Origin: Nitrospirota bacterium
Lineage (GTDB): Bacteria > Nitrospirota > JACRHJ01
Reading direction: 5' to 3'
DNA: 64,000 nt
Assembly: GCA_963698885.1 (NCBI GenBank)
Contig: CAVOSJ010000002.1
Coordinates: forward strand, 369,169 to 433,168
Each line of letters begins with the position of its first letter. The stretch's first letter is position 1. Below, in pieces: positions 31,974 to 39,841 of the stretch. The position numbers were made by a program, and so were the translations under genes. The notes beneath the pieces are model-generated. The model saw only the letters and a list, made by a program, of their open reading frames with translations. It ran no database searches and had not been told where the DNA came from.

Positions 31974-33078
31974 ATGAACGCAACTGTCTTTGACATAAAG
32001 AAAGGTGTCTTTCAAGTCTCGGGCGACGAGCTATCGCGGCTCCTCCCGGCAGATGGTTTTTTCTGGCTCGACATCGATGGCGCTTCGGAGGAGGAAATCC
32101 AGTCGGCAGCAACAGCTCTTCAACTTTCCGAACCGATGGGTTCCTGGCTTCCGCGCTTCGGGCAACGGGCCAGATTCGAGGTAGGCAGGCAGCAAACCCG
32201 GATATCCACATGGGGGGTCGGGGCTTCCGGACTGCCAGTCGAGGTACACATTCTTTTTACACAATCGTGGCTTCTCACAGTCCACGCCGGTGCCGGCAGT
32301 TCAATGGACCGGGCGCGCAGCATAAACCGGGTATATCGTCCAGTCAATTGAGGCACAGCACTTTTTGGGCCTTCTCATCATACTGGCCGAGCTGTTGACC
32401 AGTTTTGACCCTTTAATCGAGCATTTGGATGAATTGCTTTATGCCTTGGAGGAACAGGTAATCCAAACGCCAAAGGAAGCGCAGATAGACCAACTCGTGA
32501 AACTGCGTAAGCAGTTGTGGTCACTGCACAGGATTTGGGAGCCACAGCAAGGGGCGGCGAAACAACTCTCGTTCTATGTCAAGGGAAGGCCAGGAATCAG
32601 TGAGCAGGCAGATCGAGTCCGTGACTATGCAGAGCGCATCTCGGACCTCATGGACAGCATCGATGACCTGCGCCAGAGGGCCACTGAAGCGATGGAGAGC
32701 TACGGGACCAGTGTTTCCAATAGACAGTCTCAAGTCATCAACCGTTTGACAATCATCTCTGCTGTTTTTCTCCCGCTGACTTTTCTGGCCGGCTTCTTCG
32801 GAATGAATTTTCAATGGATGATCGACCGTCTGGATTCGCTTGGAGCCTTTCTTTTTCTTGGAGTCGGCCTGTTCGTTGCTATACTGGTTGCCACCTTGTC
32901 ACTCTTCAGGGGTAAGGGATGGCTGGGTGAAAATCAGGCGAGGAAACCTGAGGCAGTAACAGCTCCAACGGTATCCGGGCCGCAAGCAACGGATGTCAAA
33001 AAAGACAGACCAAGCAGCTGTCCACCTGCTAAAGATGAGTTATTTCATCCGTCAGAACCGCCCGGCCCGCAGAAATGA
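31974..33078 (+). CDS. corA: CorA-family Mg2+/Co2+ transporter, apparent frameshift near 32320-32365
   Basis: C-terminal ORF has the two TM helices and the GMNF signature. The N-terminal cytoplasmic domain lies in ORF 31974-32351 in another frame. Confidence 0.7.
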
Positions 33079-34870: not shown

Positions 34871-35530
34871 ATGTTACTAAACCGATTGTTGCTGGCATTT
34901 GTTACGTTCATCACGCTTTTTACCATGACTGACACGCTGTTCGCAGGGGAGGAACTCTTCTGGGGCCCTGGCGTGGCCGGGAAGGGCGGCATAGCGCCAG
35001 ACTGGGAGCTACAGGTAAAGGACGGGAAGCCCATGTACGGCATCGTAGAGGACGAAGGCGTGAAGGCCTTTGAGATGAAAAGCTATAACTCGTCATTTGC
35101 GGTACAGAGACAGATAAAAGTTAACATTGGTGAGTACCCTTATATTTCCTGGCGCTGGAAGGCGATAGAACTACCGAAAGGCGGCGACTTCCGCAAAAGC
35201 GGCAAGGATGATCAGGCGGCGCAAGTTTTCGTTGCGTTCCCGGGCCGTAAATCGATAAGCTATATCTGGGACACCACCGCTCCGGTCGGATCGGTCGGAG
35301 CGTTCAGCATCCCGCTCGTTATGAATGTAAAAATAATCGTGGTAACCTCCGGCGAGGCCGACATTGGCAAATGGGTGACCGTCACCAGGAACGTGTACGA
35401 GGACTACAAAAGACTTTACGGCGAGGAGCCTCCCCCCGCTGAAGGTATTCGCTTTCAGATAAACTCACAGCACACAAAAACTACGGCGTGCGCCAGATTG
35501 GCGTGGCTTCAGTTCAAAAAGAACCCATAA
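34871..35530 (+). CDS. Secreted DUF3047-domain protein
   Basis: Signal peptide. Conserved W/G-rich DUF3047-like pattern (ISWRWKA...). Confidence 0.55.
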   Translation: MLLNRLLLAFVTFITLFTMTDTLFAGEELFWGPGVAGKGGIAPDWELQVKDGKPMYGIVEDEGVKAFEMKSYNSSFAVQRQIKVNIGEYPYISWRWKAIELPKGGDFRKSGKDDQAAQVFVAFPGRKSISYIWDTTAPVGSVGAFSIPLVMNVKIIVVTSGEADIGKWVTVTRNVYEDYKRLYGEEPPPAEGIRFQINSQHTKTTACARLAWLQFKKNP

Positions 35531-35731
35531 TCCGCCACATACCGCCTAACTGCCCGTGACGACAGCGTTTTTTAAGTTGCCGGTATCGCCCTTGCACTAT
35601 ATGCTCAGGTCAAGGTAGTATCCGGTACTTTCTGCGATAGGCGGGTAATGAAAAAATAGCGGGGGTGGGCCTTAAGAGCGTCGAGTTATGCTATATACTT
35701 AAGTAATAGGTCACATGATAAGGAGGGTGTT

Positions 35732-36334
35732 ATGGCAAGGGAAAAGGCGTTGAGTCATGGCGGGGAAGGGTTAGGAAGCGCGGGCACTACCGTAAAAGGA
35801 GAGATTGCATCCAGCCTGCGAGGACTGAACGAGATTGAGGCGGAGATTGTAAGCCTTGTCCGCGATACAGTTTCAAATACGCTCAAAGCGACCGGCGCGG
35901 TGGCGGATGAAGCCGTGAAGGTGACAGCGGATGTCCTGAAAGGCGCGATACAGGCTTCAGAGGAAGTGGGCGCGAACCTTATCAACAGCACGAGAAACGT
36001 CGCTAAAGGCGCTGTTATGGGGATAAGCGATGTAAGCGGCGACGTCATTACGGCTGCAAGCCAGACCGCAAAAGGAGCGGTTAAAGGAGCCGCCGATGTC
36101 GGAGCAGACGTTGCGGTTGTGGCAAAAAGTGCGGTAGACGGCGTTATCGAGGGTGCCAGTGAAATAGGCGGGAACGTGGTAGGCGTTGCTGTTTCGGCGG
36201 TGCGCGGCGCAATCGAGGCCGCGGGCTCGATCGGAAATACTGCCGTAGCCGCCGTACGGGACATACTCGTCGGAGTGGAGGGCAGCGTAAAAGAGGTAGC
36301 CAGCGCGGCGATTCCTAAGAGGAAAGTCGCATAA
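35732..36334 (+). CDS. Ala/Val/Gly-rich protein built from ~9 tandem 11-residue repeats (predicted amphipathic 11/3 helix)
   Basis: AAGGAGGG RBS. Repeats AKGAVMGISDV / SGDVITAASQT / AKGAVKGAADV / GADVAVVAKSA / VDGVIEGASEI ... Confidence 0.55.
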   Translation: MAREKALSHGGEGLGSAGTTVKGEIASSLRGLNEIEAEIVSLVRDTVSNTLKATGAVADEAVKVTADVLKGAIQASEEVGANLINSTRNVAKGAVMGISDVSGDVITAASQTAKGAVKGAADVGADVAVVAKSAVDGVIEGASEIGGNVVGVAVSAVRGAIEAAGSIGNTAVAAVRDILVGVEGSVKEVASAAIPKRKVA

Positions 36335-36348
36335 ACGGGACGCGGACA

Positions 36349-37122
36349 GTGCGGGTCATAGCCTTAGTGAACCTGAAGGGTGGTGTAGGTAAAACTACAA
36401 CCACGGTAAATATAGGCGCCGGGCTCAGGCAGTTGGGTAAAAAAATCCTTCTGGTCGACCTCGACCCGCAGGCGCAGCTGACCTATTCGCTTGGTATTCC
36501 GGCCCATGAGCTAAAACTGACTGTTTACGAGCTTTTGAAGGGCGAAACAAAACTGGATAAAGTGGTTTTTAAGCGTAAAATCCCGGATTCCAGTTCGTTT
36601 ATCGATGTTATCCCTTCAAGCATAAACCTCTCGGGGGCGGAAATAGAGCTATCCGGGATGGCGGGAAGGGAGTTTTTACTCAAAGAAATTCTGGAAGGGC
36701 TCGCTGGATACGATTACGTGCTTATGGACTGCCCCCCGAGCCTTGGCGTCCTCACGCTTAACGCCCTCACATCCGCGCAAGAAGCGTTCATCCCGTTGCA
36801 GACGGAGTACCTGGCGTTGCAGGGCATGGCCAAGCTGGTGGAAACGGTCCAGCTTGTAAAGCGGCGATTAAACCCGGGGCTTGATATAACAGGCATAATA
36901 GGTACGCGGTTCCATCGCCGTAAAAAACTAAACCAGGAAGTAGTGGAGAAAATCAAGGAGAGTTTCGGCAACAAGCTCTTTGGTACTCTCATAAGAGATA
37001 ATATAGCCTTGGCCGAGGCCCCGAGTTTCGGAAAGACTATATTTGAATACAGACCTGGAAGCGCCGGGGCGGAAGACTATATGAACCTTTGCAAGGAAAT
37101 TTTACAACGGGGTAAGCCATGA
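36349..37122 (+). CDS. Orphan ParA/MinD-family ATPase (no N-terminal HTH)
   Basis: Deviant Walker A KGGVGKTT at residues 10-17. 257 aa with ParA-like Walker A' and B regions. Confidence 0.85.
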   Translation: MRVIALVNLKGGVGKTTTTVNIGAGLRQLGKKILLVDLDPQAQLTYSLGIPAHELKLTVYELLKGETKLDKVVFKRKIPDSSSFIDVIPSSINLSGAEIELSGMAGREFLLKEILEGLAGYDYVLMDCPPSLGVLTLNALTSAQEAFIPLQTEYLALQGMAKLVETVQLVKRRLNPGLDITGIIGTRFHRRKKLNQEVVEKIKESFGNKLFGTLIRDNIALAEAPSFGKTIFEYRPGSAGAEDYMNLCKEILQRGKP

Positions 37123-37502
37123 CGGATAAAGCACGGTTGGGTAAGGACCCTTTCAAGGCTTCCGGTATTAATACACTCATCCAGGATACAAGGGAAGAGG
37201 GTGCTCATTTGATGATGAAGAGGTGGGAATATAAAGAGGTCCTGTCTTACGAGGGATTTATAAACATCGGAATGGGCGAGGAAGAATTCAGGAAGCTCGC
37301 GAAAGATGCATCCCACTGGATAACCAGCTCACGGAATATTGCAATCAAGGCCATCGGCAAATTCAAGGATAAAGGGCAGGTAAGCGAACTGCCGGATTAT
37401 ATTAACGCTCTCGGCGCGGAGGGATGGGAGCTTGTCAGCGTCATATACGAACCCAAAGGGGAGTTGTTAAAGCTGTTCTTTAAACGCCCAATTGCCGGAT
37501 AA
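37119..37502 (+). CDS. DUF4177-domain protein with basic N-terminal extension, translationally coupled to ParA
   Basis: 4-nt overlap with the ParA stop. DUF4177-like WEYKEV...GAEGWELVSV. N-terminus MTDKARLGKDPFKAS. Confidence 0.55.
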   Translation: MTDKARLGKDPFKASGINTLIQDTREEGAHLMMKRWEYKEVLSYEGFINIGMGEEEFRKLAKDASHWITSSRNIAIKAIGKFKDKGQVSELPDYINALGAEGWELVSVIYEPKGELLKLFFKRPIAG

Positions 37503-37659
37503 GCGCAACCGGAATGATTTCCGGCCTTCAACTGAACATGAGCGGCGTCGCTGTCCAAGCGATGCCCTGCCAAATTCCTCCAAGTCAAGCAACGCCACCA
37601 TTGAATTCAGGGTTGCGCCAACGAAACTCTCTCTTCCTTCCGTCTAAATCTTAAAGGTA

Positions 37660-37692: not shown

Positions 37693-37794
37693 GGGAATTA
37701 TACTTTAACCAATTCCGCGTACATATCAAATCCGGAAGGGAGCCTTATGTTATGGGAGCCTTATGTGCTATCACACAATCATAAGGAGGTAATC

Positions 37795-39841
37795 GTGAGG
37801 CTATTTAAGAAGACTTGTTTTGCCTTGGCCATTGCGGCAGTCTTTCAGGCCGCTTTTATCCAGGCCGGGTGCGCCGGGACGACTATGCCGACTGTAACGG
37901 CACAGCCTAATGTCGGGTCCGATGTTCAGCCTTATTTCATAAAGCCGACCGCGACCCCCAAACTTTCGAAGAAGCAGATTCAGGCCCTGTTGCGGGAAAA
38001 AATCAAGTATGTTTTTGTAATATTCAACGAGAACCACTCGTTTGACAACGAGTTCGGCACATTTCCGGGTGTCAACGGCATATACTCCGACGGCGTAAAA
38101 CCCCGTTCCGCCCAGAACACGCCCGGCTATTTCCAGAATTATACGGGCGCAAATGGGGTCGTTCAGGTTACGCCGTTCAGGATCGGGCCCGACCAGAACG
38201 CCACCGTCGTAGACAGCGTGGACCACTCGCACACCGGACTCGCGACCAAGATGCATATCGTAAAGGGCAAGCCCACGATGAATAAATACGCCTACCGCGA
38301 ATACAGCCGCTTCGCTTCGTTGGGCGGTGCGGCCAACATTGCCAAGGGCACACAGTTCGCCAGACTCGTGATGTCGCATATCGACGGCGACACTATTCCG
38401 TTCTTCTGGCAGTGGGCCAGCCGCTTCACGATATTCGACAACATCTTTGCGACGGAAGACACGCCCTCCACCCCGAACGCGGTGGCGATGATAGCGGGCC
38501 AGTCGGGTGAAACCCAGTGGGTCAAACACGGCCCGAACGGCCAAAAATATGTTATTGGCCAACACCTCCAGCTATTCTACCCAGGGGCCGCCGCTGGTGA
38601 ACGACCCGCAGCCCTTCTACGGTTCCCAGTTCGATAATACGACGGGCATTAACAGGCAGCCCGCCGGACCGAAAGAGAGTTACGCCAATAACAATATCGC
38701 CTCTAACCTGACCTTCGCCACTGTGCCGCTCACCTGTATGGGAAGCGATATTAACACCGCGGCGGGGGTGGCTGGGAACCTGAACCCTGCTTTCGACCTG
38801 CCCGACATCCAGCAGGACATCGCGTACATTGCCAAACTCGCGACTACGCCGGTCAACTGGCGCTGGTACCAGGAAGGTTACGACCTCGAATCCACCGATG
38901 CGGGCGGCGTCGACTCGCATAATTCTTACGTCAGCCATCACCAGGGGCCGCAGTACTTCGGTTATCTCGCAAACACTCCGCCGCTGCGCCAGCACTTACG
39001 CGGCATGACCGATTTCTTCACGGATATGGGGGCTGTAACTGCAGATAATCCATTGCCCGCGGGCGTGTACTACATCCGGGGCGGCTACACGAACCAGATG
39101 GGGCTGCTGCCTCCTATCACTAACCCCGCCACGCCAGCAGGCGAGATCACGGCAATTGACGCGGCCAAAGCCGGAGACGACGACCACCCCAGCTACTCCG
39201 ACCGGCAGTTAAGCGAGGCGATGGCCGCCCGCGCGATTAACATCATCGCAAGGAATCCGGAGATCTGGAGCCAGTGCGCAATCATCATCACCTATGATGA
39301 GTCGGACGGCTTCTACGACCACGTGCCGCCGCGCATCCTCTCGTACGGCCCAGACGGCCTTCCGCAGTCCCGAGGCGCGCGCGTGCCGCTGATATTGATC
39401 TCGCCCTTCGCGCGTACGCACGCCGTCTCGCACGCTGAAGGCGACCACAACTCCGTAATAGAAACCATCAATTCGATCTTCGGCCTGCCCGCTCTCGCCA
39501 GCCTGCCCGACGAGGCGCAGGCGCTCAAGGCCGGCAATTCCAAGGCGTTCAACCAGTTCGGCCCGAAAGGCTTCAAGCAGAAGTATCTCGGACCGCGCGA
39601 TATCAACTCGCCGATTACGGACAGTCTTTTGTCTGGTTTCGAGCCTGGACGCCTGACGGGCGATGAGCCGCTGCTGCCGTCCTTTCTTGCGACAATTCCC
39701 GACCAGTTCGTGAATTCGCTGCCGCACTACGGCGGACAAGGCAACTCCGTGGTCGGGATCGTCCCGACGGACCAGGGACTAAACGACACACCTCCCGCAG
39801 GCTTTAATCCGCTGCCGAGCACTTATCCCGCCGCAAACTGA
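37795..39841 (+). CDS. Phosphoesterase-family protein (phospholipase C / AcpA-like acid phosphatase), apparent frameshift near 38550
   Basis: AAGGAGG RBS plus GTG start. Signal peptide. Phosphoesterase motifs in ORF 37747-38637; coding continues in ORF 38507-39841 in another frame. Combined length ~680 aa. Confidence 0.7.

Follow-up and report, generated by a model that had tools for sequence, protein, structure and literature searches.

A 64,000-nucleotide stretch of Nitrospirota DNA (hereafter the window) carries a trio of adjacent genes encoding a repeat protein (rep), a ParA-type ATPase (parA), and a small DUF4177 protein (hereafter the partner) that starts with a ParB-like N-terminal tail. 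We propose that the core of this locus is likely a two-protein positioning module of the ParA/MinD type, in which the partner would serve as the dedicated activator/adaptor of the ATPase. In the loci sampled, the tail is exclusive to DUF4177 genes adjacent to parA, and we therefore regard the two proteins as paired. Taken together, the comparative evidence supports ParA and the tailed DUF4177 protein as a genuine and very rare ATPase/activator pair, found in two lineages, for which we infer both binding and stimulation.

An N-terminal tail marks the DUF4177 protein encoded next to parA

A preliminary description of the locus had assigned the partner to DUF4177, and this assignment holds, albeit marginally: the protein scores 27.3 bits with the Pfam model (PF13783; cut-off, 25), over residues 80-113 alone, and the residues of the DUF4177 signatures WEY, GWELV, and FFKRP are invariant. 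A helical insertion of ~40-45 residues (around positions 45-90) lies within this domain, which is presumed to be a cargo-binding or oligomerizing module. In the literature searched, no description of the DUF4177 fold as an adaptor was found. Ahead of the domain, the partner begins with MTDKARLGKDPFKAS. Residues 1-31 received a predicted local distance difference test (pLDDT) score below 50 in the AlphaFold2 (AF2) model, with a short helix at residues 17-22. Across 6 homologues, residues 1-25 vary only at positions 12, 14, 17, and 19, and the core RLGK-DPFKAS-GINTLIQDTR recurs in a homologue that is 36-37% identical. Searches of PDB sequences with the partner profile and with the 35-residue tail returned no meaningful match.

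According to published work, joining a basic N-terminal peptide to an interaction domain yields an ATPase-activating protein (PMC7993993, PMC10241942). In ParB, the ParA-binding motif reads L11-x-R13-x-L15-x-x-L18-I19 (PMC12462528), and the segment G-I17-N-T-L20-I21 of the tail fits its second half (L15, L18, and I19). The tail is thus a putative ParA-binding, ATPase-activating peptide.

Among the six matches to the partner profile, the sole full-length relative outside the close clade is P0027, which is ~36-37% identical to the partner. P0027 and its cluster mates are encoded directly 3′ of the gene for a ParA sharing 58-62% identity with that of the window (L050 and L073). Read from an upstream ATG, the partner of this second lineage starts with MKKKTSLG(T/M)DPLQPTGID(A/V)LIRDTR, which aligns with MTDKARLGKDPFKASGINTLIQDTR. 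We scored the tail motif G[IVL][NDE]xL[IVL]x[DE]T across the fetched loci and found it in all 10 contigs, window included, in which a partner gene closely follows another gene. That upstream gene was confirmed as parA in nine of them (the window, L001, L002, L007, L050, L051, L052, L073, and L074), the tenth contig being L075. In comparison, neither the motif nor an adjacent parA was present at any of 54 generic DUF4177 loci, one of which has a weak, 25%-identical ParA 4 kb away. Generic DUF4177 proteins mostly start 2-3 residues before WEY. The co-occurrence of ParA and DUF4177 across genomes that the preliminary description had envisaged is therefore not a property of DUF4177 proteins at large but one of the tailed subfamily. 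This pattern matches exactly what the model of an activating peptide grafted onto an interaction domain predicts.

ParA resembles Soj and retains the candidate pocket for the tail

ParA matched the Pfam models AAA_31 (194 bits), CbiA (87 bits), and CBP_BcsQ (52.7 bits). Among solved structures, the best scores were those of M. xanthus ParA (8RAY), at 206 bits and 42% identity, and of T. thermophilus Soj, at 194 bits; MinD structures reached 68-78 bits and McdA 64 bits. The protein is short, lacks a helix-turn-helix (HTH), and has no extra N-terminal domain. As first described, it carries a deviant Walker A motif, KGGVGKTT, which spans residues 10-17 within NLKGGVGKTT and provides the signature lysine K10 and the P-loop lysine K15. 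In Motif 2, D37 and D39 align with D58 and D60 of M. xanthus ParA, while the Asn of this motif (N64 in M. xanthus) is Gln43 in the window and Asn in L073. The Walker B motif reads DCPP. Judged from its sequence, ParA is a Soj-type ATPase with intact catalytic motifs.

Residue roles were taken from PMC12462528 (Thanbichler and co-workers) and PMC6393308. In M. xanthus ParA, mutagenesis and nuclear magnetic resonance (NMR) placed the ParB peptide in a pocket formed by V116, L150, L152, L155, L187, and L192 (PMC12462528). The six equivalent positions of the window ParA are all hydrophobic (I99, L132, V134, L137, L169, and L174). The patch that receives the Arg/Lys of the ParB motif is also largely kept, with Y60, E61, and E100 in place of M. 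xanthus Y81, E82, and E117, and with D110 replaced by N93. With a tail that is conserved and found only beside ParA, and with this pocket retained, the proposal of the preliminary description that the two proteins pair through the N-terminal tail appears well founded.

Non-specific DNA binding by ParA proteins involves R189, R215, and R218 in BsSoj, K227/K230 in H. pylori, and R238 in M. xanthus (PMC12462528, PMC6393308), and the R238E substitution abolishes DNA binding by M. xanthus ParA (PMC12462528). The equivalent of Soj R189 is retained in the window ParA as R191, inside an extra basic run, RFHRRKK (residues 187-193). The ParA of the second lineage is also basic there (RYDPRRR), and both lineages have gained an RR(K/R) cluster in this helix, which precedes the arginine positions described below. 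Since both lineages show this basic cluster together with the altered arginines described below, we consider the two features a trait of the ParA subfamily.

Several observations weigh against a positioning module of this kind. First, the partner family is extremely rare, the six matches being those of a profile search of 1.84 billion representative proteins, and its co-occurrence with ParA concerns two independent lineages only, so that the statistic should not be over-read. Second, the equivalents of Soj R215 and R218 are D217 and A220 in the window ParA, where the canonical PRNVRL reads RDNIAL, and R(D/E)NIALAEAP is found in the ParA of both lineages (RENIALAEAP in L050 and L073). As these two canonical DNA-binding arginines are missing, the nucleoid-matrix step of the mechanism is unproven. 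Third, the tail L7-G-K9 fits L11-x-R13 of ParB but lies six residues (DPFKAS, with a Pro) upstream. Because the motif is split and its positive residue is out of the canonical register, we call the tail ParB-like rather than a ParB motif. Finally, the tail had been described as Lys/Arg-rich but is only mildly basic over its first 15 residues (+4/-2), and the net charge of residues 1-32 is ~ -0.4, i.e., neutral.

In the mechanism that we infer, including its binding and ATPase-stimulation steps, its matrix, and its cargo, ATP-bound ParA dimers would bind a matrix, for which the nucleoid is the default, if uncertain, guess. The GINTLI helix of the partner tail would fit the ParA pocket, placing Lys9 or Lys13 near Tyr60/Glu61/Glu100, and docking of the tail would stimulate ATP hydrolysis and free ParA. 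The DUF4177 domain of the partner would hold the cargo, which would then be moved or spaced through ParA depletion, as in a diffusion ratchet.

The similarity of this ParA to chromosomal and plasmid partition ParAs, to which it is closest, and the resemblance of the partner tail to the motif by which ParB binds ParA could also suggest a DNA partition system, either chromosomal or the remnant of a mobile element, with the DUF4177 protein as a new centromere-binding protein. We hold this to be very improbable. The two DNA-binding arginines are absent from ParA, the partner has no DNA-binding fold and no match in 72,556 plasmids, and the neighboring genes, chromosomal in character, encode transporters and phosphoesterases rather than mobile-element functions. 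Neither parS nor iterons nor palindromes were found flanking the operon. Moreover, as the preliminary description had reported the absence of parS and parB, scans of the 64-kb window revealed no parS within 3 mismatches and no ORF (open reading frame) for a second ParA or with a ParB-like motif. A plasmid context was not found either.

Organization and predicted expression of the locus

The three ORFs are co-directional and have the sizes initially described, including a 4-nt overlap between the partner ATG and the ParA TGA (Table 1), and the gap between rep and parA is 14 nt. A promoter scan identified a promoter-like site, TTAAGA-16-TATACT, at 35672-35699, 5′ of rep, and a strong Shine-Dalgarno sequence (AAGGAGG, 35720-35726) precedes the gene. 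The TATACT box and its flanks are unchanged in the alignment of the window with L007 and L001, and homology to other trio-bearing contigs at the DNA level begins at 35619/35646. The trio is predicted to be transcribed from one conserved promoter. Pairwise ratios of nonsynonymous to synonymous substitution rates (dN/dS) against orthologues were low for rep (0.10-0.12), parA (0.07), and the partner gene (0.11-0.21), indicating that all three are real, constrained genes under purifying selection. A 169-aa ORF lies antisense within rep and is probably a side effect of the repetitive, GC-rich codons of this gene.

Table 1. Features of the rep-parA-partner locus, in window coordinates
Feature	Coordinates	Strand	Description
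Conserved upstream region	35619..35731	+	Promoter-like site and ribosome-binding site
rep (repeat protein gene)	35732..36334	+	200-aa ORF
parA	36349..37122	+	257-aa ORF, GTG start
Partner gene (DUF4177 protein)	37119..37502	+	127-aa ORF, ATG start
Partner N-terminal tail, residues 1-31: MTDKARLGKDPFKASGINTLIQDTREEGAHL	37119..37211	+	Predicted disordered
Partner DUF4177-like alpha/beta domain, residues ~34-127	37212..37502	+	Coordinates include residues 32-33 and the stop codon
Conserved non-coding element	37537..37619	+	DNA homology with L001, L002, L007, and L052

In L001, L002, L007, and L052, the ~85 nt found 3′ of the operon serve as 5′ leader to a gene for a P-type cation ATPase. In the window, the genes for the P-type ATPase and an EIIA-like protein are missing from exactly the ATPase start codon onward. 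This leader (37537-37619) had no match in Rfam, and its predicted hairpins are weak and show no covariation. Rfam and tRNA scans of the 64-kb window found nothing.

Distribution and neighborhood of the trio

Near-identical loci were found in metagenome-assembled genomes (MAGs) of uncultured Nitrospirota, whereas an exact-match query of public assemblies with the window ParA returned no entry. The trio is intact in at least six contigs with differing flanks, namely, the window, L074, L001 (= L006), L007, L002, and L051, and partial copies are present in L052 and L075. Upstream, the trio follows SulP/CorA genes, a gene for a GlgP-like phosphorylase, or DUF3300/DUF2950 genes; downstream, it is followed by a gene for a P-type ATPase, a phosphoesterase, or an ABC permease. 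Homology among these contigs at the DNA level ends at most ~110 bp beyond either end of the operon. Since the flanks change and the homology stops near the operon ends, we conclude that in this Nitrospirota clade the three genes act as one unit. In the second lineage, the 2.9 kb located 5′ of parA in L073, a short contig, encode DedA/VTT and PGA_cap proteins and no rep.

Membrane proteins recur among these neighbors (P-type ATPase, CorA, and SulP, or VTT/DedA in L073). Together with the match to CBP_BcsQ and the loss of the canonical DNA-binding arginines, they could indicate that ParA acts in the manner of BcsQ or FlhG, as a localization or assembly factor for a membrane complex, perhaps the adjacent P-type ATPase, rather than as a gradient former. 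We find such a role improbable, given that the neighbors differ between the two lineages and that ParA scores against Soj/ParA far above its scores against MinD/BcsQ. Furthermore, no C-terminal amphipathic membrane-targeting helix was detected in ParA, which ends in ...CKEILQRGKP.

Other features of the surrounding DNA were also recorded. In both the window and L074, a DUF3047 gene (34871-35530 in the window) separates the SulP gene from the operon; the otherwise syntenic L007 lacks it. The CorA-like gene of the window (31974-33078) is broken into two ORFs, 31974-32351 and 32365-33078, that differ in frame, an apparent frameshift that reflects either a pseudogene or an assembly error. Similarly, the phosphoesterase (PF04185) gene at 37747-39841 consists of two ORFs that overlap and differ in frame, its L074 orthologue is likewise fragmented, and the ParA of L001 is frameshifted. 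The split phosphoesterases and the L001 frameshift suggest long-read indel errors in these MAGs. Phosphate-related genes also recur around rep and trio loci (L003, L072, L074, and 37747-39841 in the window), encoding PhoU/PHO4, a phosphate-selective porin O_P, PstS-like proteins, alkaline phosphatase, PsiE, and phosphoesterases, suggesting a possible connection with phosphate or cation stress.

Rep is modeled as a helical-repeat solenoid

In agreement with its initial description as Ala/Val/Gly-rich, rep contains 38 Ala, 32 Val, and 26 Gly among its 200 residues. The ~9 tandem 11-residue repeats first reported were not recovered as such: self-similarity is strongest at a lag of 22 (z 10.4), followed by 44 (z 7.6), and reaches a z of only 3.0 at a lag of 11. 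Rep is thus made of approximately seven 22-residue units with the consensus VGxxVVxVAxxxxKGAIxGAxE. What stands of the earlier repeat assignment is the hendecad periodicity carried by these units, whose hydrophobic period of 3.65 residues equals 11/3. AF2 modeled the protein as a compact alpha-solenoid (pLDDT 80.6; predicted template modeling score [pTM] 0.72), in which a long N-terminal helix precedes approximately seven helix-turn units with 19-residue helices and Gly turns. The model most resembles designed soluble helical repeat proteins, and a designed protein was also the only match of the rep-family profile among PDB sequences. Orthologues of rep are 88-92% identical.

The preliminary description had likened rep to proteins that coat membranes or lipid surfaces. 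According to this proposal, 11/3 amphipathic helices would allow rep to coat a membrane, a lipid body, or an inclusion, and the body so coated would be positioned by ParA and the partner. The period of 3.65 residues is compatible with such a role, and every predicted rep helix is amphipathic (hydrophobic moment [muH] 0.35-0.48). In addition, rep is predicted to be co-transcribed with parA and is retained in six contexts, its homologues adjoin membrane proteins (DUF5132, CoBaHMA with a YbaN-like hairpin, and P-type ATPases), and the cargo of ParA/MinD ATPases is often named by neighboring genes (PMC10241942). However, the modeled solenoid is compact, with helices of 19 residues broken by Gly turns, and the protein is acidic (charge -4.4) and has no basic interfacial residues. 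Moreover, no rep lies upstream of the second-lineage ParA, and five other lineages carry rep without a nearby ParA. Family-model and PDB-sequence searches returned no apolipoprotein or perilipin match, and phasin and gas-vesicle models (Pfam and NCBIfam) did not match rep at E values up to 1. We therefore judge the coat proposal unlikely, and rep is better described as a modeled helical-repeat solenoid of a family that is usually tied to cation-ATPase clusters.

Two other assignments were considered for rep. The Pfam Senescence model (PF06911) gave rep 28.6 bits, above its cut-off of 24.6, yet matched no more than 2 of the 18 family members at E < 0.01; homology to this domain was rejected as not robust, the match being probably compositional. 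Weak matches to PHROGs tape-measure proteins (E ~1e-3) were likewise judged compositional.

The rep domain also occurs in fusions, with a CheY receiver domain (P0024 and P0025) and with a C-terminal MucR/Ros zinc finger in Syntrophobacteraceae-like proteins (P0010, P0019, and P0026). MucR/Ros proteins have an N-terminal oligomerization domain, the place of which is taken by rep in the MucR fusion, and this position suggests that rep may self-associate.

Rep homologues adjoin cation-transport genes in other lineages

Homologues of rep that are 50-63% identical occur without a nearby ParA in all five other lineages sampled, and the Nitrospirota clade is the only one in which rep and ParA go together. 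Three of the five lineages share a conserved rep cluster (L003:7077-11416, L068:598-7490, and L072:5647-13356), with genes in the order DUF5132, HMA_2/CoBaHMA with a YbaN/DUF454-like hairpin, rep, HMA_2, P-type ATPase, MetK, CorA, and DUF3562. DUF5132 is a membrane protein, and the P-type cation ATPase of the cluster bears an N-terminal HMA_2 domain.

These clusters raise the possibility that rep belongs with cation transport (CoBaHMA, DUF5132, P-type ATPase, and CorA) and that the ParA pair was inserted between these genes and has an unrelated function. DUF5132, HMA_2, rep, (HMA_2), P-type ATPase, MetK, and CorA are present without ParA in L003, L068-L071, and L072, whereas L073 has ParA and the partner without rep. 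Possible remnants of the cluster are also seen near the trio, with a P-type ATPase 3′ of it in L001, L002, and L007 and CorA upstream in the window and L007. On the other hand, the trio remains intact where the ATPase has been lost or replaced (the window, L074, and L051), and the short gap between rep and parA and their single predicted promoter argue against a chance insertion. Furthermore, the rep-adjacent ATPases of the trio clade and of the ParA-less group are only ~29% identical, and no HMA_2 or DUF5132 genes were detected in the window or near the trio in the trio-bearing clade. An unrelated ParA pair is thus a serious, if less likely, possibility. The low identity of the ATPases also weakens the case for an ancestral rep-ATPase operon that might be made from the adjacency of P-type ATPases. 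With respect to the preferred two-protein module, rep may be its cargo or the scaffold of that cargo in the Nitrospirota clade, a role for which it is the best candidate, possible but unproven.

The composition of the rep cluster recalls that of calcyanin. Calcyanin, encoded by ccyA, is a glycine-zipper marker protein of intracellular amorphous CaCO3 (PMC8890360), and Microcystis ccyA is flanked by genes for DUF5132, CoBaHMA-DUF454, and a Ca transporter (bioRxiv 10.1101/2024.07.07.602159). Intracellular amorphous CaCO3 inclusions have been reported in some Nitrospirota. The same rare families flank rep homologues, namely, DUF5132, CoBaHMA with its YbaN/DUF454-like hairpin, and a cation transporter of the Ca type, and in both cases the central protein is built of repeats and has a high content of small residues. 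Rep itself, when compared with the published definition alone, is not a calcyanin. By that definition, (GlyZip)3 consists of three ~50-residue apolar motifs in which every fourth position is Gly or a small residue and a Gly-Pro stands at the center (PMC8890360), whereas the units of rep are 22 residues long and polar/acidic, with 20% charged residues, four GxxxG, no Gly-Pro, and a Gly autocorrelation at lag 4 of z 0.7. The trio-bearing clade also differs in having no HMA_2 or DUF5132 nearby, and ParA is not mentioned in the text of one paper on ccyA neighborhoods. The likeness between rep and calcyanin is thus a contextual parallel and not membership.

A more specific scenario invokes an undescribed cation-handling structure inside cells of Nitrospirota and Desulfobacterota. 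The rep family, normally encoded with CoBaHMA, DUF5132, and Ca/Mg-type P-type ATPases, would scaffold or coat a mineral or ion-storage inclusion, which the pair of ParA and tailed DUF4177 would space and partition in the trio-bearing clade. We give this scenario little credence; if true, a ParA system would for the first time be seen to serve a biomineral or ion-storage organelle, with a new adaptor fold. Independently of ParA, the CoBaHMA/DUF5132/rep/P-type-ATPase cluster of Nitrospirota and Desulfobacterota relatives may mark an undescribed ion-handling system, unrecognized outside cyanobacteria.

Significance and comparison with known systems

About one third of bacteria encode several ParA/MinD ATPases (PMC10241942). 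Many of these ATPases have undescribed cargos or adaptors, and the trio offers a testable example of how a new adaptor may originate. Its putative novelty lies in the grafting of a ParB-like tail onto DUF4177, a widespread small domain, yielding a previously undescribed candidate ParA partner. In the sampled loci, the tail predicted parA adjacency without exception, which provides a first functional handle on DUF4177. The ATPase, in turn, can be viewed as a natural experiment in specificity, as a Soj-like ParA in which the ParB pocket is kept and the DNA-binding surface is changed.

The locus has several features in common with chromosomal ParABS systems (Soj/Spo0J). ParA is 42% identical to M. 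xanthus ParA, has intact Walker A, Motif 2, and Walker B sequences, and conserves the ParB-peptide pocket and Y/E patch. The tail of the partner is predicted to be disordered, with a GI-x-x-LI helix similar to the L-x-x-LI half of the ParB motif. In contrast to ParB, however, the partner has no ParB/Srx CTPase, HTH, or dimerization domain, no parS is present, an insert of 6 residues divides the tail motif, and ParA lacks the equivalents of Soj R215/R218.

The pom locus of M. xanthus comprises three genes, with that of the ATPase in the center. PomXYZ, in which PomX and PomY are the scaffold/activator proteins of the ParA-like PomZ, follows the same logic as that proposed here, with a ParA-like ATPase and an activating N-terminal peptide on an interaction domain (PMC7993993), and a third, largely helical structural protein is likewise encoded alongside. 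The two systems differ in that no sequence or fold relationship between them has been demonstrated, PomX is a coiled-coil filament former, and the PomX tail (MKKAFEQNVSRAKPRLRLGALT) is unrelated.

McdAB, which positions carboxysomes, and the ParC/ParP and PpfA/TlpT systems, which likewise handle protein cargos, stand apart in that no carboxysome, bacterial microcompartment (BMC), chemotaxis, or flagellar genes lie near the trio, and the window ParA is more distant from McdA (64 bits) than from ParA (206 bits). What these systems have in common with the trio is a small HTH-less ParA and a small dedicated adaptor encoded next to it, and it is the N-terminus of ParA/MinD adaptors that confers specificity (PMC10241942).

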